A stretch of DNA of 47,135 nucleotides from a virus. Taxonomy: Duplodnaviria; Caudoviricetes. How positions within the stretch are numbered: position 1 is the first letter of the stretch; each line of letters begins with the position of its first letter. The notes below the pieces were generated by a model. That model was not told the origin of the DNA. It made no database searches and saw nothing but the letters and a program-made list of their open reading frames with translations. The translations under genes were made by a program, and so were the position numbers. The stretch is from the IMG/VR virus record IMGVR_UViG_3300024331_000046, positions 1-47,135 of that record. One strand, written 5' to 3'. This document shows, one piece after another, positions 31,925 through 46,391 of this stretch.

Positions 31925-31960
31925 TAGCTAACCCCTCTGTGTCCATATAGGTACAAGGTG

Positions 31961-32046
31961 TGGGCGATGCCGCAAGCGGCCCGCGCTGTCGCACTTCGTG
32001 TCGAGCCCTGTTTCACGGTCTCGCCCGCTTCGCGGCTTCCATCGCT
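31961..32046 (-). repeat. structured repeat element, left end of cassette 1
   Basis: Minus strand AGCGATGGAAGCCGCGAAGCGGGCGAGACCGTGAAACAGGGCTCGACACGAAGTGCGACAGCGCGGGCCGCTTGCGGCATCGCCCA. Confidence 0.85.
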
Positions 32047-32207
32047 ATCGCGCGTTGCTGCTCGCCTATGCTCCGCTGAAGCTTGGCCAGCTTCCACTGC
32101 CTGAACGCGGTGTAGAGCATGAGGCATGACACCAGGAAGTTGACGGTCGTGACCGCTGCGTTCAGGTAGATAGTGCGCATCACTGAAGCGTAGATTTCTG
32201 GCGTCAT
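32013..32207 (-). CDS. small membrane protein (cassette 1 cargo)
   Basis: RBS GGAGA; one TM; ends inside the repeat element. Confidence 0.55.
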   Translation of the reverse strand: MTPEIYASVMRTIYLNAAVTTVNFLVSCLMLYTAFRQWKLAKLQRSIGEQQRAIAMEAAKRARP

Positions 32208-32623
32208 GCTGGTTCTCCGTAGAGGCGGATCAAGTCGCCGTCTTTCCACATATCTCCCGTCGCCCCTCCCTTTTTGCAATAGACCAAATAGTCATCGCCA
32301 GCAGGGCGCAGGGTGAGCCAGCTCGTCCACTCTTTCTTTTTGCTGTCGGTGGATTGGTCGGTGACGACTATCTTATTGATGATCGACGGAGCGCCTCGGC
32401 AGGCATCTTGAGGGTCTTTCAGAGCCGGGTAGGACCGCTGCGCCACGACGCGCTTTATGACGACGGTGCGCTTCACGGGGACCATGCCGCCCATGACGGC
32501 TCCTGCCCACGAGCAGCCGTAGGTAACGCTGCCTAGCATGATGGAGATGACCGCCGCCAGTGTGAGCCGTTGGCGGCGCGTGGCGTCCGCGAAAAGGCCG
32601 CGCAGCTCGCTGAGGATGGTCAT
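32204..32623 (-). CDS. membrane-anchored hypothetical protein (cassette 1 cargo)
   Basis: One TM followed by a soluble domain. Confidence 0.55.
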   Translation of the reverse strand: MTILSELRGLFADATRRQRLTLAAVISIMLGSVTYGCSWAGAVMGGMVPVKRTVVIKRVVAQRSYPALKDPQDACRGAPSIINKIVVTDQSTDSKKKEWTSWLTLRPAGDDYLVYCKKGGATGDMWKDGDLIRLYGEPA

Positions 32624-32708
32624 GCGCAAGGGATGCCAGCTATGCCCGAGACCGCAGGGCTCGGCTCCGAAGGAGTGGCAGCCCGGTCCCGCTTGCGGGA
32701 TGCGCCCA
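32624..32708 (+). repeat. structured repeat element, right end of cassette 1
   Basis: ..GAGACCGCAGGGCTCGGCTCCGAAGGAGTGGCAGCCCGGTCCCGCTTGCGGGATGCGCCCA. Confidence 0.8.
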
Positions 32709-32710
32709 TA

Positions 32711-33070
32711 CTATCTCGTTCCATTGATACTAGTCCTTCGAGAGGGTGGATCGGGCAGAGGTTTCCAGTGTGTCGGGCGGTCATCATAATTTGGCCAGTA
32801 AGCGATACGTTCCTCCCATACGTCACGCGGAGGATTAAAGCCGACAACCCACCGCCCGATCATAATTCGCGTGGTTTCGTTCGGTGCGCTTTCAATGGGC
32901 CTCCATTCAGCTTCCTTCAGGTACTCAATGCGAGTTGCCGCTTCCTGCATCAGTTTGATCGGCGGCTCATCGCCAAGCGTCATCATGTCGCCGGGATCGT
33001 TCGACCAAGCACGCAACCGCGCCACCAGTTCATCATCATTACAGGAGGTCATTGCTGCACCTTGGGTCAT
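32711..33070 (-). CDS. DUF551-like phage protein
   Basis: EAATRIE, WRPIESAP, PTHWKPLPDPP; start could be 33052. Confidence 0.7.
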   Translation of the reverse strand: MTQGAAMTSCNDDELVARLRAWSNDPGDMMTLGDEPPIKLMQEAATRIEYLKEAEWRPIESAPNETTRIMIGRWVVGFNPPRDVWEERIAYWPNYDDRPTHWKPLPDPPSRRTSINGTR

Positions 33071-33255
33071 ATCCCGCACCTTCTGCGCATCCAGAAGTGA
33101 AGCGCCAAATCGAAGTCGTCCTCGCCCTCTAGGGCGGCGTTCCACCCTTCGATGAAGGCGGCAATCTCCTCGTCATCAACATCGCTGTGATAGCCGAGCG
33201 ACTTGCCCGGCAAATCGACTGTCGCGGCTGCGTTCGTTCGTGGCGTCTGTTCCAT
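33067..33255 (-). CDS. hypothetical protein
   Basis: RBS GAGGAGG; coupled. Confidence 0.5.
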   Translation of the reverse strand: MEQTPRTNAAATVDLPGKSLGYHSDVDDEEIAAFIEGWNAALEGEDDFDLALHFWMRRRCGI

Positions 33256-33579
33256 CTATCCCTCCTCAACCCCAGCGTTCAGGGCGGCGCGGCCATTGTT
33301 CAGGCAACGCGCCCATGCCAGCGCTCCCTGCTTGGCAATCTCTAGCGGGGCGATCTCGCTGGCGGTGTTGCCGATCAGTGCCGCAGATGCGACGAAATCC
33401 CCCAGCGCCTCCCGCAATCTCTCCCGTTCCTCCAGCATAGATCTGACGACTTCGTTCACCTTGTCCATGATCCGCAACGCCTTGGAGCCGTAGCTTTCGC
33501 CGCACACGTCAGCCGAGAGCAGCGCGGACTCGATTGCCTCGCGAAGCCGCTCTACTAGTTCGGTATTGGTGGTGGTCAT
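33256..33579 (-). CDS. hypothetical protein
   Basis: ELVERLR...ERLREAL, typical small early phage gene. Confidence 0.6.
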   Translation of the reverse strand: MTTTNTELVERLREAIESALLSADVCGESYGSKALRIMDKVNEVVRSMLEERERLREALGDFVASAALIGNTASEIAPLEIAKQGALAWARCLNNGRAALNAGVEEG

Positions 33580-33582
33580 CTG

Positions 33583-34014
33583 CTACTCCTGGGCCAGCGC
33601 AGTATCGACAGCCGCCTTGAGTTCTGGCGTGATCCTGAACCATTCCCGGTTTGACTGAAGGTGCTTGAAGGCGCGGTGCCATTGCCGCTCTTGGCTCCCG
33701 GCTCCCGCGATGACCCCCACCAGTTCAGGCGGGGTCGGCGCGTGGCAGCGTATCATCCGCATCCGCGATTGTATGTTGGTGGTGCGGCCGATCTTGAGGA
33801 ACCGTCCTACGCGGACGAAATAAAGGTCGCCCGAAGCCGCCAGCCTCTCCTCGGCGGCTGCCCTTTGAGCCTCGGCCCAATCCTCAGCGAAGGTCAGGCG
33901 CAACTCCGCGAACAGGGCAGCCCTCTCGGGCGATCCGACAGGCAGCTCGGGCGCAATCCCGTCAGTGAACGGGTGGGGAACAGACTGTGCCGCCTCATGT
34001 GTCGCCACGCTCAA
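33583..34014 (-). CDS. GIY-YIG / T5orf172-like domain protein
   Basis: LYFV...LKIGRTTN...R...ERQWH..F......EWF. Confidence 0.8.
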   Translation of the reverse strand: MSVATHEAAQSVPHPFTDGIAPELPVGSPERAALFAELRLTFAEDWAEAQRAAAEERLAASGDLYFVRVGRFLKIGRTTNIQSRMRMIRCHAPTPPELVGVIAGAGSQERQWHRAFKHLQSNREWFRITPELKAAVDTALAQE

Positions 34015-34044
34015 ACCTCCTCTGCGCTTTCTGCGCGTTCGGTA

Positions 34045-34073
34045 TTGCGGCTAAGGCCACGAAAACCTAGGAA
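34045..34073 (+). promoter_or_regulatory. candidate promoter for the attP tRNA half
   Basis: TTGCGG-N17-TAGGAA ending 11 nt before the tRNA 5' end. Confidence 0.35.
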
Positions 34074-34084
34074 AACTGCGCCTA

Positions 34085-34122
34085 GCCGGATTAGCTCAGT
34101 TGGTAGAGCAGCGGTTTTGTAA
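34085..34122 (+). tRNA. 5' half of tRNA-Thr(UGU); attP identity block, not a complete tRNA
   Basis: GCCGGATTAGCTCAGTTGGTAGAGCAGCGGTTTTGTAA covers acceptor 5' strand, D arm and anticodon loop; no 3' half; adjacent to the integrase 3' end. Confidence 0.88.
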
Positions 34123-34168
34123 TACGCTGCTCCGTTCCGCCGACTATAGGCATTTTCCGAAGGGGAAA

Positions 34169-35221
34169 TCAAGGTTTGTTCTCCGAGAACCGCTGCTGCT
34201 GTGCCCTCTTTTGTGCCACCCCATGCATGGCAGCCTTCTTCTGCTCGGGTGTCAGGAAGGCGAGGTAAATCTCGGTTGTCTTGACGCTGGCGTGCCCGAG
34301 GAGTTGCTGAAGGTCGTAGAGCGATCCCTTGCCAGCCTTTAGGTATTCGACCGCGTAGAGGTGCCTGAAGTCATGGAACCGGAATCCGCGAAAACCATGT
34401 GCCGCCTTCCGTGCCACCCGCCGCCGGATGTCCCCGAAACGAGAGGCCGGGCTTTTCCAGCGCTCACCGTCGCCGTGGTAGAACACGAACGGAGACCGAA
34501 TATGCCGAGCCTGGCGCTCCGCGATCTTGCGAGCTCGGCGGCTTAGCGGGATCACCCGAAGCCGGTTGCGCTTGCCGTAGATGGTGATGTCGTCGGAGCC
34601 GATCTGCTTCCACTTGAGGCCGAATATCTCGTCCTCGCGCATCCCCGTCTCGCGGGCGAAGTCCATCGCATCGGCGAACCTGGCGGGCGCCGAGGCCTTG
34701 ACCAGCGCGATCTCTTCCTCGTCGGGCAGGACAATCGGGTCGCGCTTCTCGCGCATCCTGCGGTGCCGCAGCGTCAAGGTCGGGTTCTCTTCGGCCCAGC
34801 CCTCATCGATCGCGTGGTCGATCACGCTGGAAATGGCAGTCAGGTCGCGGCGGATGGTGGCCGTTCCGGCTCCGTTGACCCGCCTGCCCTTCACCATCTC
34901 GCGCAGCTTGGAACTGTCGATGCGCTGTATCTCAACCCCGTCCAGCCACGGGCGCACCTGCTTGAGGCTTGTCAGGTAGCGCTTGAGCGTTTTCGGCGCG
35001 AGGTCGCCGGTCGCATGGGCGCTCCACGACAGCACTACGGCCTGCCATGTCTGGGGCGGCAGGATGCCAAAGCGAGCCTCATTCTCAACGTCCCTCTTCA
35101 GCGCCTTCAGGCGGCGCTCTGCTTCGCTCCGAACAGCCGTTCGTAGGCTGTGTCGGTATTCTCGACCCGATACCTTGAAGCGCGCCCACCATGTGTTCCC
35201 GCGTTTGTAGAGATTGGGCAT
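34169..35221 (-). CDS. int: tyrosine integrase
   Basis: TGMREDE, K, FHDFRH, LLGHAS..TTEIY catalytic residues. Confidence 0.95.
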   Translation of the reverse strand: MPNLYKRGNTWWARFKVSGREYRHSLRTAVRSEAERRLKALKRDVENEARFGILPPQTWQAVVLSWSAHATGDLAPKTLKRYLTSLKQVRPWLDGVEIQRIDSSKLREMVKGRRVNGAGTATIRRDLTAISSVIDHAIDEGWAEENPTLTLRHRRMREKRDPIVLPDEEEIALVKASAPARFADAMDFARETGMREDEIFGLKWKQIGSDDITIYGKRNRLRVIPLSRRARKIAERQARHIRSPFVFYHGDGERWKSPASRFGDIRRRVARKAAHGFRGFRFHDFRHLYAVEYLKAGKGSLYDLQQLLGHASVKTTEIYLAFLTPEQKKAAMHGVAQKRAQQQRFSENKP

Positions 35222-35397
35222 GGCCGCTTCCTGCTCACCTTTCGCGCCCACTGGCGCAACTCGTCCACATCGAACGTCCAGCGGCCGGCGGGCTTGCCGG
35301 CGCCTGGAATGCCCCCGCTAGCCGCGAACGCCTGTAGAGTGCGCTTCGGGATGCCTGCGATCAAGCTCGCCTCTGAAATGCCGACGCGCTCTTTCAC
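35107..35397 (-). CDS. xis: excisionase-like HTH protein
   Basis: ISEAS.IAGIPKRTLQ...G.IPG..K.AGRWTF; overlaps the int start. Confidence 0.7.
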   Translation of the reverse strand: MKERVGISEASLIAGIPKRTLQAFAASGGIPGAGKPAGRWTFDVDELRQWARKVSRKRPCPISTNAGTHGGRASRYRVENTDTAYERLFGAKQSAA

Positions 35398-35479
35398 ACC
35401 TGCCACCGCCACATTGGAGGCAGACCGATGCACACGATGCTGACCAGCAGGATCGCGCCGATGAGATGATCGAGGAGCT

Positions 35480-35929
35480 TCATGGGGCGGGGATTTCGTG
35501 TTGGATGGGCACGCCAGCAGCGCGAGCCTGGCGCACCATGTTCTTTGTGCCTTCGCCGCCCGGAAACGCCAGCACCAAGTCCGGCTTGCCTTCAGCGAGC
35601 ATTCTGCCATTACGGATTGGTCCGGCGCTGTTGCCGTGCCTGTCCCAGTCGGCAGGGAATTTTAGGTTGTCGATCTTGTTACGGCGCGCCCAGTAACCAG
35701 CGATCCGGTCAGCACCGGGCGCGTTGCCCTCATTCACAACGCCGATGCCGCAATAGTCGCCCGTTACCTGACCTTCTGACCGGGTGGAGAGGGTGGCGCG
35801 AGCGTATCTGCGCCAATGGTCCGGATCGTTTTCCCACTTGCATGGGCTGATCGTGTAAACGCGGTTGTGTTCTTCGAAGATCGCCCGCGCGACGGCTTCG
35901 ATCATCTCGGGTGTCGGCTCTCTGGTCAT
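35480..35929 (-). CDS. chimeric protein with C-terminal SLOG (YspA/DUF2493-like) domain
   Basis: GNAPGAD, FPADWDRHGNSAGPIRN..ML, LVLAFPGGEGT.NM. Confidence 0.7.
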   Translation of the reverse strand: MTREPTPEMIEAVARAIFEEHNRVYTISPCKWENDPDHWRRYARATLSTRSEGQVTGDYCGIGVVNEGNAPGADRIAGYWARRNKIDNLKFPADWDRHGNSAGPIRNGRMLAEGKPDLVLAFPGGEGTKNMVRQARAAGVPIQHEIPAP

Positions 35930-36303
35930 GGTTTCCGATCCTCGGTTGGGATACCCTGTGCGGGCGCATCGGCGTTGCCGACCGCGCTCTCGTCTTCGAC
36001 GGCACCCTGTTTCACGGTTGCCGCCCTTCGGGCTTCGATCGCTTGCGCGTCGCGGGCGTCCATCATCTCACGCGTCTCGAACATCGGGTGTCCGCACTGG
36101 GGCTGCCAGCGGAGTTGCCAGTCGCGCAGATTGAAGCTGTCGAACTCGATGTCGCGGCGGCAGTCGGCGCAGTACCAGCTATGCGAGCCGTGGTTCCACC
36201 AAAGGGCTGGTTCGGCTTGGCAGGAGCGCCGATTACACGCGCCGCCTTCGAGGCCCTTGTTGGGCTTCTCGGGGGCATCCAGCGGGAGGTCCATGAAAGC
36301 CAT
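35926..36303 (-). CDS. Cys-rich hypothetical protein (cassette 2 cargo)
   Basis: CNRRSC and YCADC; C-terminus reads through the repeat element. Confidence 0.65.
   Translation of the reverse strand: MAFMDLPLDAPEKPNKGLEGGACNRRSCQAEPALWWNHGSHSWYCADCRRDIEFDSFNLRDWQLRWQPQCGHPMFETREMMDARDAQAIEARRAATVKQGAVEDESAVGNADAPAQGIPTEDRKP
35961..36043 (-). repeat. structured repeat element, left end of cassette 2
   Basis: Minus strand AGCGATCGAAGCCCGAAGGGCGGCAACCGTGAAACAGGGTGCCGTCGAAGACGAGAGCGCGGTCGGCAACGCCGATGCGCCCG. Confidence 0.85.
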
Positions 36304-36321
36304 CAGCAGCCTCCCGCGATA

Positions 36322-36401
36322 CGGATCGAAGCCCGAAGGGACGGGACACCGAAGAGTGGCCCGACGCGAAGCGCGAGAGCCGGGGCCGAAGGCATCGCCC
36401 G
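36322..36401 (+). repeat. structured repeat element, right end of cassette 2
   Basis: CGGATCGAAGCCCGAAGGGACGGGACACCGAAGAGTGGCCCGACGCGAAGCGCGAGAGCCGGGGCCGAAGGCATCGCCCG. Confidence 0.85.
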
Positions 36402-36403
36402 GA

Positions 36404-36571
36404 TCATGCTCTCACCTCACAATCACACCTAAGCCTTGACCACTCTGGCTGGGTACGGCGACGAATGGCCGTCTGACTCAGCTTGGCATGGTCGTGATTG
36501 AGGCGCAGCAGTACCGATCCATGCGGACCCACGATGCGCCTCTCGAACGGGTTGTGAATGAGTTCGTCCAT
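36404..36571 (-). CDS. hypothetical protein
   Basis: TAATG-coupled start. Confidence 0.4.
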   Translation of the reverse strand: MDELIHNPFERRIVGPHGSVLLRLNHDHAKLSQTAIRRRTQPEWSRLRCDCEVRA

Positions 36572-36771
36572 TATGCTGCCTTCCCCGATTGAGCATCGGC
36601 CCACAGCTTCGCCATGCGGACCGTCGAGCTAAACTTGTCGAAGTGGGCGATGACGTAGCGACCGCGTGTAAGCGGCGGCATGTCGCCCTGCACCTTGATC
36701 GTGATCGTGCCGTCGTCAAAGTCGGCGCTGTCCAGACTACCGATGGCGAGAAAGTCGTAACCCTGCTTCAT
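36571..36771 (-). CDS. hypothetical protein
   Basis: Coupled at both ends. Confidence 0.55.
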   Translation of the reverse strand: MKQGYDFLAIGSLDSADFDDGTITIKVQGDMPPLTRGRYVIAHFDKFSSTVRMAKLWADAQSGKAA

Positions 36772-37154
36772 GCTGCCCTCGCTTCGTCAGACCAGCGCAC
36801 CCCATGCTCGTCACCGAATGCCTGGATGAAATTGATCAGGTCGCCCATCTGCGACTTGGTGAGCTTCGAAGATCTGAAGCCCTGCGGAAACGGGCGTCCG
36901 TCCAGCCCTTCGAGGAACTGGACCTCCCACCCGCAGGCATTCATGAAGATGCACTTCCAGTCGTCGGGCGTGTGCCGGCGACCCATCGGCATGGCCACGG
37001 ATACGTCGGTGAGCATGGCCCAGAGCTTGTTATTCTGATCCAGCGTCCGCGTCGGCTCCCGAACCTCGGCCACATAACCCTCCGGTGCTTGGTCAACGAT
37101 CCGCTTGAACCGCTCCCGGCTGAAGGCGTTGGTGAGGATAACCTTGTGCGTCAT
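36768..37154 (-). CDS. ninB: NinB-family recombination protein
   Basis: RTLDQNNKLWAMLTDVS...DDWK..F...RSSKLTKSQM..LI.FI.AFG.EHGV.W. Confidence 0.88.
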   Translation of the reverse strand: MTHKVILTNAFSRERFKRIVDQAPEGYVAEVREPTRTLDQNNKLWAMLTDVSVAMPMGRRHTPDDWKCIFMNACGWEVQFLEGLDGRPFPQGFRSSKLTKSQMGDLINFIQAFGDEHGVRWSDEARAA

Positions 37155-37477
37155 GCCGCCCTCCGATGCCATTCGTCGGCTAGCCGCGTTGCCTCTGCGA
37201 ACAAGTCGATCCCATGCACGCGAAAGAAGCCCTGGTGCCCAAGCGCCTCGACCGACCACCGTGGCCCGTGCTGGATCAGGTGGAACTCGGGCGCCAAGGG
37301 AACGACCAGCCAATCGCTGCGCGCAATCCGCCCCGCCTTGTCGGCATAGCCCGTCACATGGTGGACGGTTGCCGGACGGCCGCACACGAGGCATCCCTGC
37401 GCCGCCACGAAATCATGGTAGCGCCGGAGCTCGGCGGGCTTGTAACGCGAGCGCGTCTTCAAGGCGGTGCGGCGCAT
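37151..37477 (-). CDS. DUF968/Ref-like Zn-binding nuclease
   Basis: GCLVCG...VHHV...VVPL..EFH. Confidence 0.7.
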   Translation of the reverse strand: MRRTALKTRSRYKPAELRRYHDFVAAQGCLVCGRPATVHHVTGYADKAGRIARSDWLVVPLAPEFHLIQHGPRWSVEALGHQGFFRVHGIDLFAEATRLADEWHRRAA

Positions 37478-37650
37478 CACGCCTGCGGCCCCTTGGTCAG
37501 GATTTCGTCGATGGACGACCGCGGCGGCAAGCCCTGCCACTCACGCGCTCGATTGATCTTCCGCAGCCGATAGTCTGGATCGCTCCAGTAGCGACGCTTG
37601 CGTACTTCAGCGAGGCGCTGGCGTTCCTTGAGGGGGGTAGAGAAGCTCAT
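37477..37650 (-). CDS. 57-aa basic hypothetical protein (not in ORF track)
   Basis: MSFSTPLKERQRLAEVRKRRYWSDPDY...; overlaps neighbours by ATGA and TGATG. Confidence 0.55.
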   Translation of the reverse strand: MSFSTPLKERQRLAEVRKRRYWSDPDYRLRKINRAREWQGLPPRSSIDEILTKGPQA

Positions 37651-38636
37651 CCGCCAGTGTGTCCAACGGTCAGAGGGGTGGGTTCCTTGCGCAGCGGCGG
37701 GTCCGCCAGCTCTGCTTCGCGATTGTTGTAGGCGGTCTCGAAGCGGCGGCTTTCGTCTCCGTCGAGCTCGGCGATCTTGCCCTCATGCTCCTCGATCAGC
37801 GATTGGAGGTCGCTGATGCTCTTGCTCTCCTGGACCAGCGACGCGAGGAACTGATAGTTGGTGCTGACCGACAAGTCGGCTCGCTTCTTCTCAATCTCGC
37901 CCTTGAGGCCCAAGTCCTCGGGAATGTTGGGGTCGCCCTCGACCAGCGACGGCCAGTCACGCATCGCCTGATTGATGGTGCGCTTGTGCTCCTTTTTCAG
38001 CGCCTCAAGGTCGTCCAAAGTCTCGACTTTTCGCACCGCCGTGATAATGTCGTTCACCGCCTTGCGGAGCTTGGTCTTGCAGTCGTGCGGGCCGTCCAGT
38101 TTCTCGCGAGCGGCGGGCTCTTTGACAGGTTCGACTTCGATGATCTCGCCGCTGTCGCGGTCGAACGTCACCATCTCCTCGGCCGGCGTCGTTGCCAGTC
38201 CGGCTTTCATCATCACGACCACATGAGCGAAGGCAGTCCGCCCGGCGCGGCTCATGGCTCGCGTTTGCGCCATTGCCCGGATCGCATAGTCGGCGCGCTT
38301 CGGAAGCGTCTTGCCGCGCGAGGGCCCGCCGTACCACGTCGGCTCATCCTCGCCGACAAAGCCCTCGGCCGTCGCGATGAGTTGCCCGTCAGACATGCGT
38401 CGGACTTCGCCAATCGCCCGGACGCCGCCCTCGACTCGCTCAACGTCGCGGGCGCTTAGGGCGCAGCCGTGAGCGATTGCGATTGCCTGCCAGCCTTCCA
38501 CGGCGACGTAGCGCCGACCCTGGATCGTGCTGGACGTGGCGACCACGATTTCCTTGCACATGTCGGCGGCTTCGGTGGATGCCCGGTAGGCTTCCACGTC
38601 AGCAGCGGCGCGGTTGATTACGGTGACTTCGTTCAC
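37647..38636 (-). CDS. putative single-strand annealing recombinase
   Basis: IQGRRYVAVEGW, AMAQTRAMSRA, TPAEEM; next to ninB; family uncertain. Confidence 0.6.
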   Translation of the reverse strand: MNEVTVINRAAADVEAYRASTEAADMCKEIVVATSSTIQGRRYVAVEGWQAIAIAHGCALSARDVERVEGGVRAIGEVRRMSDGQLIATAEGFVGEDEPTWYGGPSRGKTLPKRADYAIRAMAQTRAMSRAGRTAFAHVVVMMKAGLATTPAEEMVTFDRDSGEIIEVEPVKEPAAREKLDGPHDCKTKLRKAVNDIITAVRKVETLDDLEALKKEHKRTINQAMRDWPSLVEGDPNIPEDLGLKGEIEKKRADLSVSTNYQFLASLVQESKSISDLQSLIEEHEGKIAELDGDESRRFETAYNNREAELADPPLRKEPTPLTVGHTGG

Positions 38637-38779
38637 GAATTGCTCGGGCGGAGATTGTTGGCCTCCGCCCGCTCCCTTGAAGGTTGTTTGAATTTCGGCG
38701 AGCGCTCGCCCTGTCGTTCGATCATCCCAACCAAAGCATCGGCGAACATGTGCGCTCGGATTGCGTCGGTGTATTTCAT
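38633..38779 (-). CDS. 48-aa hypothetical protein
   Basis: RBS AAGGGG; GTGA overlap with the recombinase. Confidence 0.4.
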   Translation of the reverse strand: MKYTDAIRAHMFADALVGMIERQGERSPKFKQPSRERAEANNLRPSNS

Positions 38780-38784
38780 CCCCT

Positions 38785-39399
38785 TCATCGGGCGTCTCCC
38801 CCTTCGGGGGCCGGGCCGTCATGCTTCGCACCAAGCCCGTCTTCGCGGTCTTGGCCTTCGGTTTCCGTCCCTGACGCGAGCCGCACTCCGCTCAGCGTGT
38901 GGTAGTAGAAGCTATGCAGGAAGCCGCGGTGGATCGCGTAGGGGTCTAGCCGCTCGTGATATTGGCGGTGCAGCCAGATAGCGCGGCCTGACCGCCCGTT
39001 GCCGTCTGTGAACGGATGCAGCGTCTCATAGGCGACGTGCTGGCCCCACGGGTCACGCATGGCGAGAATGCGACGCAGCGCATCTTCGATGTGCGGGCCG
39101 CTCGGCGGCGCAATATGATCGCCGACGCGAACGCCAGGAATGTGCGCGGCGTTGCGGAAACGTGCGTCAGGCTGGAGAACGCTGACCAGCTGGCATAGCG
39201 CCGGGATGCAGATAGGCCCGCCGAGGAACGCGACGTGCGCGATGATATGCGCGTCTGTCGTCTCGTGGATGCCTTCGATGTAGTTGCTCTCGCGAACGAA
39301 GTCGCCGATCGCCGCGCGAGGGATGAGCGGCTCTGCTTGAGACAACGAAGATTGGCTCAACCGCGAAGCGGCGCCAGCCCGGTCCGAAGGACGCGCCAT
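38785..39399 (-). CDS. fic: Fic-domain protein (cassette 3 cargo)
   Basis: HPFTDGNGRSGR matches the canonical Fic motif; ESNYIEG. Confidence 0.9.
   Translation of the reverse strand: MARPSDRAGAASRLSQSSLSQAEPLIPRAAIGDFVRESNYIEGIHETTDAHIIAHVAFLGGPICIPALCQLVSVLQPDARFRNAAHIPGVRVGDHIAPPSGPHIEDALRRILAMRDPWGQHVAYETLHPFTDGNGRSGRAIWLHRQYHERLDPYAIHRGFLHSFYYHTLSGVRLASGTETEGQDREDGLGAKHDGPAPEGGDAR
38789..38878 (-). repeat. structured repeat element, left end of cassette 3
   Basis: Minus strand ..AGGGACGGAAACCGAAGGCCAAGACCGCGAAGACGGGCTTGGTGCGAAGCATGACGGCCCGGCCCCCGAAGGGGGAGACGCCCG. Confidence 0.8.
39314..39398 (+). repeat. structured repeat element, right end of cassette 3
   Basis: ..AGGGATG...GAGACAACGAAGATTGGCTCAACCGCGAAGCGGCGCCAGCCCGGTCCGAAGGACGCGCCA. 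Confidence 0.8.
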
Positions 39400-39716
39400 T
39401 ATGCTGCCCTCCGAGGCTTCTGAAGCTCAATCGTGAACCGCAGGTCGCGCTCGATGCCCTCGCGCAGAGCTTGCTCCTCAATCTCGGCAACCCGCGCCGC
39501 GTAAGCCGCCTCCGCCGCCGCCTTCGCGTCCACCACGTCCGCCAGCTTCGTCAGCCGGTACGCAGCCTGGATCGCGTCATGGCGCTCCTGCTCGGCTTCC
39601 TTGAGCTCGGCCTGCTTCGGGCCGTCGGGCGTCGGGCGGCCGAACAGCGCCGTCAGCATGTCGAAGTCGCCGCGGGTCGCGGTCGACGCGGGGACGGTGA
39701 CGAGGCGGTCGGTCAT
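39399..39716 (-). CDS. hypothetical protein
   Basis: RBS GGAG; helical; coupled. Confidence 0.55.
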   Translation of the reverse strand: MTDRLVTVPASTATRGDFDMLTALFGRPTPDGPKQAELKEAEQERHDAIQAAYRLTKLADVVDAKAAAEAAYAARVAEIEEQALREGIERDLRFTIELQKPRRAA

Positions 39717-40075
39717 GCCGGTTGCTCCGCGCGCAATTTGGCACGAGCCTCGAATGGATCTTGGCTGAACCCCGCCGGGCTTTCCTGAAGGTTCTCGAAG
39801 TCCGGATTGACGGCGCACCACATCGGGCGTCCGTCATCGCCGGTTCCGTCCATGAAGATGCGCGGTTCGTCTTCGCGCGGCCCGCCGTGCCCGGGGCAAC
39901 AGGGGCCGTGACAATAGGGGGCGCGGTTGTAACGCGGATTATAGTGCCGTTCGCGATAAAGCACGGCGAGCGGTAGCTGCGGCCCGAACGCCTGTTCATC
40001 GCAGAAGCCCGCCGGCACGCCCATCATCCACATCGGGACACGGCACTTGCCGCCAGCCCACTGCGGCGCGCTCAC
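39713..40075 (-). CDS. Cys-rich hypothetical protein
   Basis: GKC.VPMW...AGFC...C..HGGP; coupled. Confidence 0.6.
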   Translation of the reverse strand: MSAPQWAGGKCRVPMWMMGVPAGFCDEQAFGPQLPLAVLYRERHYNPRYNRAPYCHGPCCPGHGGPREDEPRIFMDGTGDDGRPMWCAVNPDFENLQESPAGFSQDPFEARAKLRAEQPA

Positions 40076-40389
40076 AGCGCCCACCCCGCAACGATCAGCG
40101 GAGCCACGAACAGCACCGCGACCGACGCAAGGACCAGCAGCGCGAACGCCGCATGATGCGCCGGCGCCGCGGCGACGTCGGACCAGAACTCGCGCCAGTC
40201 GTCGGCGAGGGTTGGCTCGGGAGCCGACAGATAGCAGAGCCGATGATGTTCGCCGGTTGCCAGCTGCCGCGCCGTGCAGTTGCAGACGGTCAGGTGCCGG
40301 GTCTCACGCAGGTCCGGCGCGAAGGCATCGCGGGCGGCTTGCTGCTCGGTCTCGCCGAATAGCGGGAAGACGTTGGGGCGGCGGTCCAT
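40072..40389 (-). CDS. hypothetical protein with C-terminal TM
   Basis: Coupled ORF. Confidence 0.55.
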   Translation of the reverse strand: MDRRPNVFPLFGETEQQAARDAFAPDLRETRHLTVCNCTARQLATGEHHRLCYLSAPEPTLADDWREFWSDVAAAPAHHAAFALLVLASVAVLFVAPLIVAGWAL

Positions 40390-40589
40390 TATGCGGCCTC
40401 TGCCATGATGCGGTCGCAGAGCTTGTCGATCGCGGGCAGTTCGAACTTCTCGGGGACAAGGATCGTGACCTTGTTCTGACCGCGGGCGTAATCACACCTG
40501 GAAAGGAGGCCGTGGTCACGAAGACGGCGAGAAAGACGGCGGGCCTCGGCCTTGCTGCTGAAGCACTTGGTTGTTTCGGTGATCGCCAC
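40389..40589 (-). CDS. first gene of the leftward early operon, hypothetical
   Basis: GTG start with GAAGGAG RBS. Confidence 0.5.
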   Translation of the reverse strand: MAITETTKCFSSKAEARRLSRRLRDHGLLSRCDYARGQNKVTILVPEKFELPAIDKLCDRIMAEAA

Positions 40590-40626
40590 TGATCTGCTCC
40601 TTCGGCTGGGTGCCGTTGGAGCTGTT

Positions 40627-40667
40627 TTGGACAATTCGTCCGACTAAGTCAAGGACAAAATGTCCAA
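40627..40667 (-). promoter_or_regulatory. leftward promoter/operator (PL/OL-like)
   Basis: Palindromes TTGGAC-N5-GTCCGA and GGACA-N3-TGTCC flanking a minus-strand TTGACT. Confidence 0.7.
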
Positions 40668-40672
40668 GGCGT

Positions 40673-40945
40673 TTAGGCCGGTTTTGCGTCCTTTTCCGGT
40701 GGCCTGGGCCGCGCGGGCGGGATTTTGCCGAGCAGGATATATTCCGGATCGCGGCCGACGATCAGCGCGAACCGTTCGATCAGGTAGTGAGGCAGCGGCG
40801 TCCGGTATTCGTACTTTCGGTAGCGGTCGGCCGGCACGCCTAGAGCGGTTGCCATTTGCTCGGCGGTCCAGCCCCTATCCTCGCGCAAGCGCTTCACGCG
40901 CTCGACGATGGCTGTCTTGAACTCTGCTTCAGGATTTCCGGCCAT
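40673..40945 (-). CDS. CI-like XRE repressor, HTH only
   Basis: RVKRLREDRGWTAEQMATALGV....YRKYE; divergent from the cro-like gene. Confidence 0.85.
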   Translation of the reverse strand: MAGNPEAEFKTAIVERVKRLREDRGWTAEQMATALGVPADRYRKYEYRTPLPHYLIERFALIVGRDPEYILLGKIPPARPRPPEKDAKPA

Positions 40946-40980
40946 GCGGCGAATATGCCGACACAGGGTCCAGTTGTCCT

Positions 40981-41019
40981 TTGACACGGTGTCTTGACTT
41001 AGTTGGACAGATAGTCCAA
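40981..41019 (+). promoter_or_regulatory. rightward promoter/operator (PR/OR-like)
   Basis: GACAC-G-GTGTC, TTGACT and TTGGAC-N5-GTCCAA; inverted copy of 40627-40667. Confidence 0.7.
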
Positions 41020-41029
41020 TCATCGCGGC

Positions 41030-41239
41030 ATGTCCGAAACTACGCTCACATGGCAGCTCGTTAACAGCGTCGCTGCCGACCTCGGCGCCAAGGAAGAAGC
41101 ACGCCTGAAATGGCGGCAGCGCGGTGTCCCGCCCAAGTGGCGCATCTCCATCGCCCAGGAGCTTATGCGCCGGGGCATCCCGGTCGCGCTCGGCGACTTC
41201 GACAAGCTCGACCTGAACCCCGGTCGGATCGCAGCCTAG
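41030..41239 (+). CDS. Cro-like protein
   Basis: VAADLG......KWRQRGVP; divergent from the repressor. Confidence 0.7.
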   Translation: MSETTLTWQLVNSVAADLGAKEEARLKWRQRGVPPKWRISIAQELMRRGIPVALGDFDKLDLNPGRIAA

Positions 41240-41427
41240 TGGCGCATGGGCAGGACCTTGGCTCGGCCTTCATGCCACTGGTCGATCGCCCGGTTGAGCC
41301 GACGCACCGCCTTCTTCGCGACCGCGATAGGCATGTGGTACTCACGACCTTTCCAGCGCGCGACGATGTGATCGCCCTGCGGCTCGTATTCGGCCGGTTC
41401 GTCCACGAAAATAGGAAGGTCGTCCAT
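41236..41427 (-). CDS. small hypothetical protein antisense to the rightward operon
   Basis: RBS GGGAG; AT-rich upstream region. Confidence 0.45.
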   Translation of the reverse strand: MDDLPIFVDEPAEYEPQGDHIVARWKGREYHMPIAVAKKAVRRLNRAIDQWHEGRAKVLPMRH

Positions 41428-41644
41428 CCGGAGCGCTCCCAACAAGAGCGACCGAGCGACAGAATTACAGCACCGTTACTATCGGAAATCAACTTATCAT
41501 TAAGCCCCACATTGGGACATGATTTGTGAATGCGCGGCACTCGGTCGCGCCCGGCGCAGTCACCGCTCACAGCCCCCGAGATGTGACTGCGTCGGCTCCC
41601 CTTAGCTTCTCCATCAGATTCGGCACGCATGGGAGGGGCCTTTA

Positions 41645-41983
41645 ATGGCAACCGCACCGAATTTCCTCGGAGGATTCCGCGCAACCGGTCGCGCCCGCAC
41701 CGAAGTGCTCGACGACATTGGCAGCGCTCTAGGGCAAGTCAAGCGCGCTCGCGGCCTCACCGCCGACGACATGCGGATTGTGTTCGGGCTGAAGGTTGAC
41801 GACCAGGTAGCCCGGTACATCGCAGGCGAGGCCGAAATGGGGATCGTCGCCTGGATGCGCGCTTGCGAGGCGTGGCCCGAGCTCACCGAATTGCTGGAAG
41901 AGACCATCGCCGAACGGGTGATGCGTGGTCGGCAACGCGCGCTGGACCTCGAATTGCCGATGCGTCGGGAGAAGGCAGCGTAA
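41645..41983 (+). CDS. CII-position regulatory protein
   Basis: RBS GGAGG; HTH-like; position. Confidence 0.55.
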   Translation: MATAPNFLGGFRATGRARTEVLDDIGSALGQVKRARGLTADDMRIVFGLKVDDQVARYIAGEAEMGIVAWMRACEAWPELTELLEETIAERVMRGRQRALDLELPMRREKAA

Positions 41984-42258
41984 TGGCTGCGCGGATCAGC
42001 CAGCCGTACAAGCGCAAGCTGAAAGCGGTCCTCCGCGAGCGCCATGGCGACAACTGCCATTGGTGCGGTAAGCCAATGTGCTTCGAGACGAACCAAGAGC
42101 CGCTTTCGGCTACCATCGAACACGTCATCCCTAAATCGAAGGGCGGGACGAACAAGCAGTCCAACCTGAGACTGGCCCACACGCGCTGCAACGAAGATCG
42201 CAGCGAGCCCACGCCGAGGCGCGTCCGGTCGCCATTCTATGTGCTGGTGCAATCATGA
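41983..42258 (+). CDS. HNH endonuclease
   Basis: CHWCG, TIEHVIPKSKGG, NLRLAHTRCN. Confidence 0.85.
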   Translation: MAARISQPYKRKLKAVLRERHGDNCHWCGKPMCFETNQEPLSATIEHVIPKSKGGTNKQSNLRLAHTRCNEDRSEPTPRRVRSPFYVLVQS

Positions 42259-42653
42259 CCGCCCGCGACATCCCCACCGAGCGCCAAGTCCAGCGCGCTA
42301 TTCTCGCGATGGCCGGCGTCTGCTTCAAGCAAGTCTATATCACCGCAATCCCCAACGGCGCTCACTTGGCCGGCGACGGGGTTGCCAGGTTCAAGCAGAT
42401 GGGAGCCCTCAAGGGCGACGGTCTCAAGGTCGGCTTCCCCGATCTGCTGTGTCTGTGGTCGCCCGGCAAAGGCTGTCTGATCGAGGTCAAGCGACCAAAA
42501 ACCGGGCGGCTGACCGACGACCAGATCGCCGTCCACGAACGCCTTCTCTCTCTGGGCTGGCGGGTCGCAACGGTCAACAGCGTCGAGGCTGCCTACAACT
42601 TCCTGATCGACTGCGGAGCGCCGTGCAGCGGTGAATTGAGGCTGGCGGCATGA
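42255..42653 (+). CDS. VRR-NUC domain nuclease
   Basis: GFPDL, IEVKRPKTGRLT..Q. Confidence 0.85.
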   Translation: MTARDIPTERQVQRAILAMAGVCFKQVYITAIPNGAHLAGDGVARFKQMGALKGDGLKVGFPDLLCLWSPGKGCLIEVKRPKTGRLTDDQIAVHERLLSLGWRVATVNSVEAAYNFLIDCGAPCSGELRLAA

Positions 42654-42922
42654 CACTCCCGCTCACCGACCGCCAAGAGCAACTCTGGCGCTACATCAAA
42701 TCGTGCGAGCGGTCGCCGACCTTCACCGAGATGCGCCTCGCGCTCGGGCTGGACAGCAAGAGCGGCGTGCATCGGCTCGTCACGTCGCTGGAAGAGCGCG
42801 GGTACATCAGCCGGATCAAGAACCGGGCGCGGTCGATTGTCGCGCTCGATCCTCCAGTCCGGCAGTTCACGCCATACCAAGCCGATGTCGTGAACCTCAT
42901 CCTGTTCGGGCGCATCTCGTGA
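42650..42922 (+). CDS. LexA DNA-binding-domain-like protein
   Basis: LTDRQ...YI...SPTFTEM..ALGL.SKSGVHRLV..LEERGYI.R...RAR; no protease domain. Confidence 0.8.
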   Translation: MTLPLTDRQEQLWRYIKSCERSPTFTEMRLALGLDSKSGVHRLVTSLEERGYISRIKNRARSIVALDPPVRQFTPYQADVVNLILFGRIS

Positions 42923-43179
42923 GCGCGCTGGACCTCCGTGACCGCTTCCCGTGGACAGAGGCAGAGCAAGCCTATGTCGTGGCCGCCAAGCGTGGCCATG
43001 TCCGCCACAAGGCCATGGCGCGCACGCTAAGGCGCTCACCTCGCGCGATCGACCAGAAGGTCGCGCGGATGAAGGAGCTCGGCCTGCTGAAGATGCACGA
43101 GCGGGAAGAGATCGAGCTTGTCGAGATTCTGCTGGCCGAGGCCGCGCTTCCTGAATGGTACCCGGAGGGTCGGCGGTGA
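42919..43179 (+). CDS. HTH-like hypothetical protein
   Basis: PWTEAE...MARTLRRSPRAI. Confidence 0.55.
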   Translation: MSALDLRDRFPWTEAEQAYVVAAKRGHVRHKAMARTLRRSPRAIDQKVARMKELGLLKMHEREEIELVEILLAEAALPEWYPEGRR

Positions 43180-43739
43180 GCTTCAACGTCGCCATGCTCG
43201 AAGCGATGCAAGCCGAGGGCTTGGACCTTGACGCCTGCATCCGCATTCTGCGTGCCGCTGGCCCCGATACGGCGGCAGAGAAGCGCCGTGCATGGGATCG
43301 CGAACGCAAGGCGGAAAAGCGCGCAGATGCCAAGGTGTCGGGTGGAAAGTCCACCGGAAATCCACCGGACGGGTTCCCCAATGATAGAGATATTCTAACC
43401 CCTCCCATTCCCCCCAATGGGATTTCTAACGAAATCCCTCCCCCCGCAGACGAAAATCCAGAAATCGAATTGAAGCCCGAGCATGTCGTCGAGGCCTGGA
43501 ACGAATTGGCCGTTCGACACGGCTTGGCAGCGGTGAAAAAGCTCACCCCTGAACGCCAGAAAAAGCTCCGGACGTTCATCCGCCGGCACACCATCGACGA
43601 CATCACCGAAGCCATCGCTGCGATACCCCGTTCTCCCTTCCTGCTGGGGCAGAACAATCGGGGCTGGCAGGCATCGTTCGACTGGTTCCTGGAACCGCGG
43701 AATCTGACCAAGCTGACTGAAGGCACCTATGCCCACTAA
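43176..43739 (+). CDS. putative replication initiator
   Basis: AEKRRAWDRERK, Pro-rich linker, C-terminal W.ASFDWFL...N.TKL.EG.Y. Confidence 0.65.
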   Translation: MSFNVAMLEAMQAEGLDLDACIRILRAAGPDTAAEKRRAWDRERKAEKRADAKVSGGKSTGNPPDGFPNDRDILTPPIPPNGISNEIPPPADENPEIELKPEHVVEAWNELAVRHGLAAVKKLTPERQKKLRTFIRRHTIDDITEAIAAIPRSPFLLGQNNRGWQASFDWFLEPRNLTKLTEGTYAH

Positions 43740-43902
43740 CCCCCTCAAAATCGCAGCATCGGCAGGCAAAGACCCCCCCTGGACCGCCCTGCAATACTAC
43801 CGCCGAGCCGTCGAAAACGGGGACCGCGAGAAGGCATCGTTGTGGCTCGCCGAAGCGAAGAAGCGCGGCGAGATCGTCGATCCATCCGAGCAGCGCCAAT
43901 GA
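43729..43902 (+). CDS. 57-aa hypothetical protein (not in ORF track)
   Basis: MPTNPLKIAASAGKDPPW...; RBS GAAGG; coupled. Confidence 0.45.
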   Translation: MPTNPLKIAASAGKDPPWTALQYYRRAVENGDREKASLWLAEAKKRGEIVDPSEQRQ

Positions 43903-43938
43903 ACCGCCCCACCACCATAGCCCTGATCGGTGCGATTC

Positions 43939-44592
43939 ATGGTTGAGCCAGTCATCATCGGGCGAGCCACGCTTTACCTCGGGGATTGCCGGGACATTCT
44001 CCCCAGCTTGCCGAAGGTGGACGCGGTTGTGACCGATCCGCCATATGGGATCAAAGCCGACCGCGACCGCAACAGCGAGCAATGGGGCTGGATCGACTAC
44101 GGTAGCGGCGGCTGGGACAACGCTCGTCCGGACGCGGAACTGATCGCCTTGGTCCTCGCTGCAGCCAAGCACTCGATCATCTGGGGCGGCAACTACTTCC
44201 CCGATATTCTGCCCGCCAATCCTCTAGCAAAATGGCTCGTCTGGGACAAGGGACAGGAGGGCTTTTCGCTCGCCGATTGCGAGATGGCGTGGTGCTCATT
44301 CGAGGGAGCTATCCGCCGCAAGTTCTACGCCCGCGCCTTGGCGATGCAGGACGGCAAAGAGCACCCGACGCAGAAGGCGCTTGCCGTGATGAAGTGGTGC
44401 ATCGAGCAGCTTCCGAAGGGCTGCGGCACCATCCTAGACCCGTTTATGGGCAGCGGCACCACAGGCGTCGCGGCTGTCCAGATGGGCCGCAACTTCATCG
44501 GAATCGAACGCGAACCCAAGTATTTCGACATCGCCTGCAAGCGCATCGAGGATGCCCAGCGACAGGGCGATTTCCTGCTGGAGGTCGCATGA
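43939..44592 (+). CDS. DNA amino-methyltransferase (N6A/N4C, beta class)
   Basis: TDPPYG precedes HPTQK and LDPFMGSGTTG. Confidence 0.92.
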   Translation: MVEPVIIGRATLYLGDCRDILPSLPKVDAVVTDPPYGIKADRDRNSEQWGWIDYGSGGWDNARPDAELIALVLAAAKHSIIWGGNYFPDILPANPLAKWLVWDKGQEGFSLADCEMAWCSFEGAIRRKFYARALAMQDGKEHPTQKALAVMKWCIEQLPKGCGTILDPFMGSGTTGVAAVQMGRNFIGIEREPKYFDIACKRIEDAQRQGDFLLEVA

Positions 44593-44774
44593 ACCGCGCA
44601 CCCACAATCCTGCTCATCGGTGCAATTCAAGTCGGCAAGATGTTCGTAACTGCTGTCGTTCTCATGGCTGCAATTCTGGGCGAATGCTTCGCACCGCGCT
44701 TTCGTGCCTTCGGCATCGAGCCGGTTCCCGTCTCGCCCCTTCGGGCTTCAATCGCTTTCGCAGGGGCCTGTTGA
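44589..44774 (+). pseudogene. 5' part of a small gene interrupted by cassette 4
   Basis: MNRAPTILLIGAIQVGKMFVTAVVLMAAI then runs into the element; MAAIEAVAFAQMALQGRNDG* resumes at 45524. Confidence 0.55.
44677..44756 (-). repeat. structured repeat element, left end of cassette 4
   Basis: Minus strand AGCGATTGAAGCCCGAAGGGGCGAGACGGGAACCGGCTCGATGCCGAAGGCACGAAAGCGCGGTGCGAAGCATTCGCCCA. Confidence 0.85.
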
Positions 44775-45043
44775 TGCCCTACCGTGTTCACCTCTGCTCG
44801 TTCGTCGAGGGCGTGTATGACGTTACTTCGCCGAGCGGGAAGACTGGCCTCACGTTCGAGGACAGCAATCAGTTTGGGCCGTCGAAGCTCAACATGAGGA
44901 CTGGCGAGCCGTCGCCAATCTCCGAGCGCCTGAAATGGTTTTGGGTCTGGTATCCGCGCTGGCGACAGGCGGGACGACCCACGACCGGCGAGCGCTCCAA
45001 TCAATACGGCACCTACAAAATCGCACAAGGAGAACTGCAATGA
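44774..45043 (+). CDS. hypothetical protein (cassette 4 cargo)
   Basis: TGATG-coupled start. Confidence 0.55.
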   Translation: MPYRVHLCSFVEGVYDVTSPSGKTGLTFEDSNQFGPSKLNMRTGEPSPISERLKWFWVWYPRWRQAGRPTTGERSNQYGTYKIAQGELQ

Positions 45044-45243
45044 CGATCAGCGTTCGAGTGAGCTGCAACGGCAATTACAAGTGCCCAGTCAGCTACAAGC
45101 AGGGCGACCGCGAAGAGAGCTTCACGCTGTCCGGTCGCGGCAAGGATGGTCCCGACGAGCGCTCCATCCCCTTCTACCATAGCGCGGATGTGATGACGCT
45201 CAGCGTTGGTCCTGAAGAGCAGGACAACGGCGAGGCGGAATGA
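45040..45243 (+). CDS. hypothetical protein (cassette 4 cargo)
   Basis: RBS AAGGAG; ATGA overlap. Confidence 0.6.
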   Translation: MTISVRVSCNGNYKCPVSYKQGDREESFTLSGRGKDGPDERSIPFYHSADVMTLSVGPEEQDNGEAE

Positions 45244-45518
45244 CCGACATTCCACTGCTCTGCCCGGTTGAGCCGCACGAGATGCCCAAACCGATGAGGC
45301 GCGGGTTCGAAGACATCGTGGCGCGAGTGGTAGTGTCTGCTGCGGGCCACGGCTGGGGACGCGATCTTCTGCTGCGCGTTTACACCGCTGGCATCTTCCA
45401 TGGGGTTGAGCTTCAGAAGCGCGCCGCGTCAGCGATCGAAGCGCGAAGCGATGCGACACCGAAGAGTGGCGCAGCCCGTCAGGGCGAGAGCGCGGTGCCG
45501 AAGGCAGACGCCAAATGA
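45240..45518 (+). CDS. hypothetical protein (cassette 4 cargo)
   Basis: ATGA overlap; C-terminus reads through the element. Confidence 0.55.
   Translation: MTDIPLLCPVEPHEMPKPMRRGFEDIVARVVVSAAGHGWGRDLLLRVYTAGIFHGVELQKRAASAIEARSDATPKSGAARQGESAVPKADAK
45431..45513 (+). repeat. structured repeat element, right end of cassette 4
   Basis: AGCGATCGAAGCGCGAAGCGATGCGACACCGAAGAGTGGCGCAGCCCGTCAGGGCGAGAGCGCGGTGCCGAAGGCAGACGCCA. Confidence 0.85.
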
Positions 45519-45575
45519 CAGGAATGGCTGCAATAGAGGCGGTAGCTTTCGCTCAAATGGCTCTGCAGGGGAGGA

Positions 45576-46133: not shown

Positions 46134-46391
46134 GCGAGATTTTTGGAATCGCCGTTTGGCGCCCTCGCTCACACGTTGACCGGGACTGTGCGCCAGAGCG
46201 CCGCGCCGGGATTAAGTTCATATTGTCAAAGTTTCGGGCCTAGGCTCGACCCGGCACCGCATCTGCACCCTTCCCAAGGATAGCGAGTGCCGGGATACAT
46301 CTGAGAGGCCGGGCTAAAACCCCGATAAAACGGTTGGCGGTTATCCGGGCGCGACACAAGAAACCGCCGCTCATCACCAAGGGACACCGCA

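Follow-up and report, generated by a model that had tools for sequence, protein, structure and literature searches.

A motif with a predicted five-stem fold of one DNA strand at phage gene-cassette ends, in single-stranded DNA phages and in conjugative plasmids

The 47,135-nt stretch of tailed-phage DNA from soil analysed here (the window) contains eight real elements that share one strongly covarying branched fold and lie in outward-facing pairs at the ends of four gene cassettes. The motif is uncatalogued, no description of it having been found in the literature searched (chiefly open-access and post-2000, without the original ssi papers), and it recurs in inoviruses, a gokushovirus and the F, R100 and IncW plasmids. 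We tentatively favour, at a probability of roughly 0.45, a candidate second-strand priming signal read by the host, which the phage would have co-opted to end either strand of a cassette with a copy; exchange would proceed by recombination between short homologies.

Eight elements and their common fold

The elements of the window are as follows.

31962..32051, minus strand: element e1, left end of cassette A (descriptor and alignment; P1 type GCGAT)
32624..32707, plus strand: element e2, right end of cassette A (descriptor match)
35962..36048, minus strand: element e3, left end of cassette B (descriptor match)
36316..36400, plus strand: element e4, right end of cassette B (descriptor match)
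38790..38877, minus strand: element e5, left end of cassette C (descriptor match)
39314..39398, plus strand: element e6, right end of cassette C (descriptor match)
44678..44761, minus strand: element e7, left end of cassette D (descriptor match)
45426..45513, plus strand: element e8, right end of cassette D (descriptor match)

A structure descriptor derived from the eight copies themselves finds exactly eight sites in the whole window, as counted in the original prediction, and none in 40 order-3 Markov resamples of it. Covariance model R1, trained on the same eight elements, scores them at 62-91 bits, the next-best match in the window reaching 20.5 bits (E 0.37). The MAFFT alignment of the eight has 94.3% of its cells paired, with changes on both sides in 23 of 28 pairs, a level equalled in 0 of 500 shuffles, all three figures using a structure that came from these eight sequences; the claim that stems vary yet keep pairing is borne out. 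Plain folding energy is unremarkable (z of -0.4 to -3.0, beyond -2 in one of the eight). The predicted locations stand, although five 5' boundaries lie 5-10 nt further inward than claimed, and the proposed AGAC-hairpin-GGCTC skeleton is present but covers only the 3' two-thirds of the fold. The order of a minus-strand left and a plus-strand right element holds in 4/4 pairs, as predicted. Rfam release 15 matched no element in positions 30000-47135, its single chance match lying outside the elements, and no promoter or terminator match overlaps an element.

The fold comprises ~90 nt arranged as five branched stems, with 60-70% identity between copies. The outer stem has an invariant GCG at its base, and further invariant bases are unpaired. 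For 97 distinct elements from loci outside model building, aligned by fitting to the covariance model, 95.9% of cells are paired and 27 of 28 pairs covary. A mechanical tally of loops over 346 rows gave cGNAg 572 times, GNRA 131 times and UNCG eight times; GNA triloops have a stability specific to DNA. In 140/150 cases the strand that carries the element folds more stably than the complementary one. The loops are of the DNA type, and one DNA strand by itself is predicted to adopt the fold. A bias of G over C was observed in 48/68 genome-locus rows, which are not independent, and is therefore not used as evidence.

Cassettes, junctions and the search for an enzyme

The remaining features of the window are the following.

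32204..32623, minus strand: 139-aa ORF forming the cargo of cassette A, without a family match
31924..32127, minus strand: 67-aa ORF reading through e1
35926..36303, minus strand: 125-aa ORF forming the cargo of cassette B, with a C-terminus read through e3
38785..39399, minus strand: Fic-like ORF of cassette C, 204 aa, reading through e6 and e5 (Pfam Fic at E 9e-5, narrowly missing the curated cut-off)
44774-45043, 45040-45243 and 45240-45518, plus strand: three small cargo ORFs of cassette D, no family matches, the last reading through e8
44664..44674 (left, plus strand) and 45524-45534 (right): 11-bp direct repeat flanking cassette D
31917..31951: outer linker on the left of cassette A, conserved in related phages G001 and G011 and in a contig that co-occurs in run X1
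32711..32755: outer linker on the right of cassette A, conserved on comparison with relatives
33246..33291: linker, element-free in the window, adjoined by an element in G001 and G011
35402..35487: linker, element-free in the window, adjoined in G001 and G011 by different but related elements (~88% alike across the block)
39713..40084, minus strand: element-free gene whose 87-88% identical homologue is cassette cargo in G001
34169..35251, minus strand: ordinary tyrosine integrase, the sole recombinase-family match among the ORFs scanned

Cargoes are mostly single ORFs trimmed near start and stop. Sites C and D are empty in G001 and G011, providing the empty alleles for which the original prediction had proposed a search, and the empty allele of site D retains the 11-bp repeat in a single copy. 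Site A exists as three alleles with three different cargoes. Copies of e1 (96% identical) and e3 (92%) each stand beside different cargo in G001, and the right element of the Fic cassette at locus L387 is 92% like e2. The homologous 436-nt Fic cargo of L387 lies between different elements with identical cargo boundaries. Homology between alleles stops 0-7 nt from the inner GCG when e1 is compared with G001, at both ends of the Fic cassette and in the duplicate cassette of phage G002. Outer junctions, in contrast to the ends of attC cassettes or of transposons, are ragged, with 2-11 extra bases and duplications of 2-11 bp; microhomology accompanies the duplications at empty-site junctions, and four comparisons with element-free homologues yielded no target consensus. 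One contig contains an identical element twice (L089/L090) between unrelated flanks. Contigs matched at 85% likeness comprise related DNA with the same linkers and joints of uncertain origin, and circles or inversions left no usable trace in them. The sequencing runs listed for this DNA included none of RNA.

The ORFs scanned in the window include no recognisable dedicated transposase, in agreement with the original prediction. The phage-type integrase of the window was undetected in G001, G002 and G011, a Y1 transposase is absent from 4/4 element-rich phage records, and these phages revealed no common enzyme and no element-specific recombinase. Among 135 of the 156 listed neighbour ORFs at genome loci, plus a few second neighbours, no HUH or Y1 enzyme was found, the scan returning only two partial DDE matches; G007 encodes one Y1 transposase, ~38 kb from the nearest scored element on the same contig. 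A search for a partner gene left ORF 26703-27317, alone common to the window, G001, G002 and G011 and with no Pfam family or usable Atlas match. It was not found in G004, Pf1 or the parts of F and IncW searched, and a phage-encoded partner was rejected.

Distribution of the motif and comparison with known systems

Elements of the wider phage set are paired in 134/238 cases and unpaired in 104/238, so that the statement that every element has a partner is true of the window but not of the family. Neighbours 230-1000 nt apart follow the minus/plus order in 35/52 cases, and unpaired phage elements display no strand polarity relative to transcription (44/90, AT-skew proxy). The isolated Sphingopyxis phage VSN-002 carries four copies, one pair among them, at 13761-14305; one Flavobacterium genome contains at least 21 dispersed copies, resembling a mobile repeat, and in G006 and G007 copies stand alone between unrelated flanks.

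In Pf1-type and other inoviruses and in one gokushovirus the elements are unpaired and lie on the virion-sense strand. The element is on the coding strand in each of the 15 rows that contain an inovirus assembly gene (11 Pf-type, four from other lineages), and its position is fixed across 21 records of Pf phages. Five small records, one of them only a possible inovirus, contain one copy each, and L073 contains two. In gokushovirus KT264808, a single case, the element (57 bits, coding strand) fills most of the VP1-VP2 gap, the position of the annotated complementary-strand origin of G4. A mutant of PA0719 is altered, in the accessible text of PMC12328805, in the start codon region only, and is thus likely no test of the element.

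The element lies on the template strand at 11/11 distinct ArdC loci and at the one ArdA locus; at 11 of the 12 loci the gene stands 5' of the element. IncW and F plasmids carry the fold on the strand templating ardC and ssb, the equation of template strand and T-strand being taken over rather than derived from the scan. R100 has two copies, as does F, where they lie inside the 559-nt repeats that also hold Frpo. Near matches occur in 3,371 plasmid records, 2,585 of them predicted conjugative. The published ssiD fragment functions as an initiation signal; compared by eye, the element lies ~90-95 nt past its end, and the Frpo stem folds separately, so that identity with Frpo/ssiD was rejected. 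By our mapping, one F element lies between ssp2 and psiA. The accessible part of 10.64898/2026.01.09.698686 describes strand conversion downstream of ssp2 of F as late and early events as rifampicin-sensitive, and maps a demonstrated T-strand roadblock stem to ssp2, which our model does not match; position and kinetics make efficient rifampicin-resistant priming of the primase or PriA type at the F element unlikely in E. coli. Three unscored "Frpo*" candidates in supplement file 7 of PMC11541004 include, by eye, all or part of the element, which is not singled out in the accessible parts of the Frpo-related literature (PMC11541004, PMC9849209, PMC12672017, 10.1101/2023.02.15.528439).

Frpo/ssiD (ssp1) and the class 1-3 ssDNA promoters of F and IncI1 share with the element its strand, the same leading-region repeat in F and R100, and the character of folded ssDNA likely read by host proteins; the element, like class 1 promoters, lies on the transferred strand upstream of leading genes. 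Class 1 promoters have homology to ssiD and use a long stem to rebuild -35 and -10 boxes, whereas the element is a GC-rich unit of ~90 nt without such a stem, occurs also in phages and inverted pairs, and is absent from ColIb-P9 1-50,000, which, judging from its leading-region genes, holds ssi repeats.

Complementary-strand origins include G4 oric (DnaG), phiX174 pas (PriA) and the M13 type (RNA polymerase). They resemble the element in having several hairpins on the virion strand, and G4 oric in its location after the major capsid gene, as in the gokushovirus, but the element fold is branched and we know of no such origin that brackets cargo. The model had no match in phiX174, G4, ColE1, R6K, ColIb-P9 1-50,000, Pf3, I2-2, If1, RSS1, RSM1 or Cf1c, so that no link to a tested origin emerges. 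Identity with the pas of phiX174 or ColE1 or with G4 oric was rejected (best match at most 11 bits with filters off).

Integron attC sites occur one per cassette in direct arrays and are recombined by IntI with a precise crossover in an invariant triplet. The element is similar in its conservation of structure over sequence, single folded strand, invariant terminal triplet and tight single-ORF cargo; it differs in its branched fold, two inverted copies per cassette, lack of IntI and ragged outer ends. Its junctions at the inner GCG are sharp. REP/REPIN-RAYT units and IS200/IS605 ends are inverted doublets around a spacer with a linked Y1 transposase. The doublets and dispersed chromosomal copies are shared features, in contrast with the five-stem ~90-nt fold, the 60-70% identity and the absence of a Y1 transposase from four element-rich phages. 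PeSLs of T4-type phages are, in the accessible text, repeated non-coding modules where accessory genes are reshuffled (PMC2839356; PMC4122927) and act as sigma70 promoter-terminators (PMC2839356); the elements, unlike these, overlap no promoter or terminator, face opposite ways and are often translated.

The proposal that the elements are ends of insertable cassettes was partly supported. It largely holds for the inverted outward pairs, variable cargo and empty alleles, but the primary role of the elements is probably not that of cassette ends, since many are solitary and the copies of plasmids and single-stranded DNA phages bracket nothing and keep one fixed strand.

Candidate functions

Under the priming reading, a host protein would read the folded motif, since no candidate gene is common to this phage, Pf1, F and IncW. 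Copying toward the 5' side of the element would be primed by RNA polymerase, primase or PriA, and a pair would place one signal at the cargo 3' end on each strand, so that either strand arriving via phage single-strand-annealing recombination could be filled in. Recombination between short homologies, at the conserved ends of the elements and in the 30-45-bp outer linkers, would swap cargo and element interiors, selection keeping intact folds and translational coupling. Observations in its favour are the covarying fold, the pairs, the empty and alternative alleles, the fixed strand of the plasmid and single-stranded DNA phage copies and the G4-like position in the gokushovirus. The inner-GCG junctions are sharper than short homology easily explains, and the Flavobacterium copies, the polarity-free unpaired phage elements and the F kinetics also strain this reading.

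A bolder version, which we consider unlikely, is an enzyme-free cassette in which converging priming signals act like PCR primers, the intervening gene leaving as a short linear copy that inserts at another place; Pf phages would then have their unmapped second-strand origin in this fold, and thousands of F-type plasmids an overlooked conversion signal.

It appears similarly doubtful that the elements serve, in the manner of attC or REP, as substrates for a single-strand recombinase or HUH nuclease acting in trans, which would cut at the invariant GCG and link genes to elements, plasmid and ssDNA phage copies being relics or co-opted. The abrupt end of allele homology near the inner GCG, the tight, mostly single-ORF cargoes, the L089/L090 repeat and the dispersed chromosomal copies argue for such an enzyme, but none is common to element-rich phages or, as HUH/Y1, present among the scanned neighbours, outer junctions are ragged and free of a target consensus in four comparisons, and elements that keep one strand and one position in Pf, F and IncW suit a carrier function.

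Rather improbable is a barrier or landing pad that blocks 3' exonucleases, stalls polymerase (as ssp2) or binds a protective host protein, stalled ends switching template and making element edges recombination hot spots. The element is always 3' of the flanked genes on the exposed strand, the empty-site junctions fit and the accessible part of 10.64898/2026.01.09.698686 demonstrates a roadblock on the F T-strand; that roadblock, however, is ssp2, a barrier needs no invariant unpaired bases and it would hamper an inovirus copying its whole circle.

Action as RNA (a leader, processing or translational-coupling structure with cassettes as by-products) would suit elements within operons that are often translated and lie on the mRNA strand in inoviruses, but is very unlikely given the predominance of GNA triloops, the template-strand location in plasmids, one antisense copy per pair and the lack of an Rfam match. 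Least credible is a selfish miniature repeat useless to its carrier, with pairs arising when two copies mobilise the intervening gene: standalone copies in G006 and G007 and the 104/238 unpaired phage elements agree with it, but not the fixed position across Pf phages (21 records), F-type and IncW plasmids, the strict strand rule or the lack of terminal inverted repeats and of a fixed duplication.

One uncatalogued fold connects mosaicism in tailed phages with the genomes of inoviruses and microviruses and with the leading regions of F, R100 and IncW plasmids. F, Pf phages and the Sphingopyxis phage VSN-002 already offer systems in which to test it. If the priming reading is true, Pf1/Pf4 would gain a candidate minus-strand origin, and the best-studied conjugative plasmid a module beside Frpo that is open to experiment; the entry of small accessory genes into phage operons, tightly bounded and without a transposase, would also be explained.

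The window and the fold of the element

The 47,135-base virus record contains terminase, portal, capsid and tail genes, a tyrosine integrase, NinB, a repressor-like gene, an O-like initiator and an antiterminator, and its variable early and late-control regions hold all eight elements. These eight (e1-e8), described in the original prediction, are real, and the element is widespread and uncatalogued within the scope searched. On its own strand, an invariant GCG opens the 5-bp outer stem, and one unpaired A precedes a 3-bp stem. An A-G mismatch and a short irregular helix lead to a four-way junction with three hairpins, after which come GG and a fourth hairpin, then the closing CGC and one unpaired C. 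The window copies share ~65% identity, with 94.3% of cells paired and both sides changing in 23 of the 28 pairs. Alignments fitted to the model gave 95.9% paired cells both for 132 distinct copies (25/28 pairs changing on both sides) and for 97 copies at loci that did not belong to the training set (27/28). Conservation of 90-97% at several unpaired positions suggests that the element has a binding partner or a tertiary fold. Loops were counted mechanically over 346 rows, of which a few lie below threshold: there are 572 cGNAg triloops, 131 GNRA and 8 UNCG loops; GNA triloops are stable in DNA. A shorter variant without the fourth hairpin was observed at three loci (L466, 1599-1679; L004, 9250-9330; L451, 2071-2148).

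Rfam gave no match to the element, which falls outside every named family tested. The available portions of PMC5778457, PMC7690428, PMC12328805, PMC9849209, PMC7736820, PMC12672017, PMC11541004, PMC2839356, 10.1101/2023.02.15.528439 and 10.64898/2026.01.09.698686 contain no description of it; the original ssi papers may hold a mapping.

Elsewhere in the window, a phrog_19042 gene (PHROGs function unknown) adjoins NinB and, from this position, is likely a single-strand-annealing gene. Positions 34092-34123, adjoining the integrase, resemble part of a tRNA gene and are likely attP; aligned contigs continue into tRNA-like sequence, and ARAGORN identified no whole tRNA there. An unannotated ORF (26703-27317) is common to three element-rich phages at 40-56%, and their head and tail genes have no tblastn match to the window. 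The antiterminator protein (45576-46133) is 99% identical in two related phages, G001 and G011, whose structural genes are unrelated to those of the window.

Paired cassettes and their alleles

The element pattern occurs in ~520 viral stretches, as estimated from 15 of 64 parts. Inverted pairing, as predicted, prevails among close neighbours: for 122 hits from loci with at least two hits, excluding duplicates and single-hit loci, neighbours 230-1000 nt apart were arranged -/+ in 35 cases, +/- in 7, -/- in 5 and +/+ in 5. A separate anchor test looked for opposite-strand partners within 1.3 kb of 38 elements: 21 had one on the 5' side, 17 lacked one there, and a partner on the 3' side was present for 4. 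The claim that every element has a partner holds for the four pairs of the window but not beyond, as 134 are paired out of 238 distinct elements counted in phages after removal of inovirus-like loci and edge cases. These form 68 cassettes (including one that is an artefact of a duplicate) with mostly unrelated cargo of 156-1199 nt. Of 85 cargo ORFs picked by a mechanical rule, 16 matched PHROGs, with HNH, RusA, RNase H and dCMP deaminase among the matches. The reading frames of many cargo ORFs run through the elements, and operon coupling is kept via overlapping start and stop codons.

Empty-site alleles were found, as anticipated, for the two rightmost cassettes, C and D, which are absent from G001 and G011. 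Because the right arms of these phages are closely related, the absences are not two independent losses. Relative to the empty allele, 11 bp are duplicated at the filled site D and a further 3 and 11 bases are present, and the filled site C has 10 extra bases plus a 2-4-bp overlap. The expected variability of cargo was observed at site A, where three different cargoes lie between constant outer linkers of 25-45 bp. There, G001 retains e1 (96%) and divergence starts exactly at its first G, while G011 retains the ends of e1 with a different interior. At site B, the G001 cargo is a gene whose counterpart in the window (39713-40084, 87-88%) is free of elements; in G001, element sequence takes the place of the first and last codons. 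The Fic cargo of cassette C recurs at locus L387 with identical 436-nt boundaries and different surrounding elements, and one 229-nt cargo is present twice in G002, another element-rich phage. The sharp inner junctions would suit a recombinase or nuclease acting on the elements, a reading that we consider unlikely.

In related phages, gene slots with nothing else in common share four element-free linkers of 35-45 bp at 93-100% identity (window 31708-31751, 33028-33066, 33547-33584 and 35761-35803). A DNA methylase gene, flanked by two copies of a short gene start (43895-43941 and 44589-44630) and absent from G001 and G011, represents an insertion without elements.

Elements outside tailed phages

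Pf1-type phages carry one element on the coding strand at the end of PA0719, and four other inovirus-like lineages have a single coding-strand element; in one gokushovirus, the element fills most of the VP1-VP2 gap. The packaged strand of these single-stranded DNA phages is the coding strand. R100 carries two elements, as do two IncW plasmids, and the F plasmid copies are:

58089-58176, minus strand: element at the distal end of a 559-nt repeat containing Frpo
63477-63564, minus strand: element at the distal end of a 559-nt repeat containing Frpo

The IncW copies at locus L341 (1834-1972 and 7992-8130) have an extended third hairpin and lie within two 660-nt repeats that are 94% identical. Of 123 genome loci found, 79 were scanned, ten with ardC and one with ardA; at these ardC/ardA loci and the IncW locus the element occupies the template strand of the gene (12/12). 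Among 61 genomes from a single alphaproteobacterial family, a shallow search located the element in 14. Dispersed copies number nine in one genome (G006), all on the same strand, and at least 21 in a Flavobacterium (G007), where simple repeats and further small palindromes surround a variant whose inner hairpin is long and AT-rich (L312-L327).

A putative single-strand initiation signal

Wherever unpaired elements occur in a carrier with a known single-stranded stage, the naked entering strand bears them. The transferred strand templates leading-region anti-defence genes (10.1101/2023.02.15.528439), and in plasmids the anti-defence gene lies 5' of the element, the direction in which a polymerase would copy; the side relative to genes is undefined in circular phage genomes. 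No candidate gene common to the carriers was found, and we thus infer that a host protein would read the folded element. Second-strand priming would be the simplest need that the carriers share. Against priming, F conversion past ssp2 is slow and early events need RNA polymerase (10.64898/2026.01.09.698686), and the published ssiD functions without the element. If priming occurs in E. coli, it is probably via RNA polymerase, or weak. That the element is instead a barrier seems improbable. The element putatively works like a single-strand initiation signal, and its use in paired cassettes, where it would provide one signal at the 3' end of each cassette strand, is the new part.
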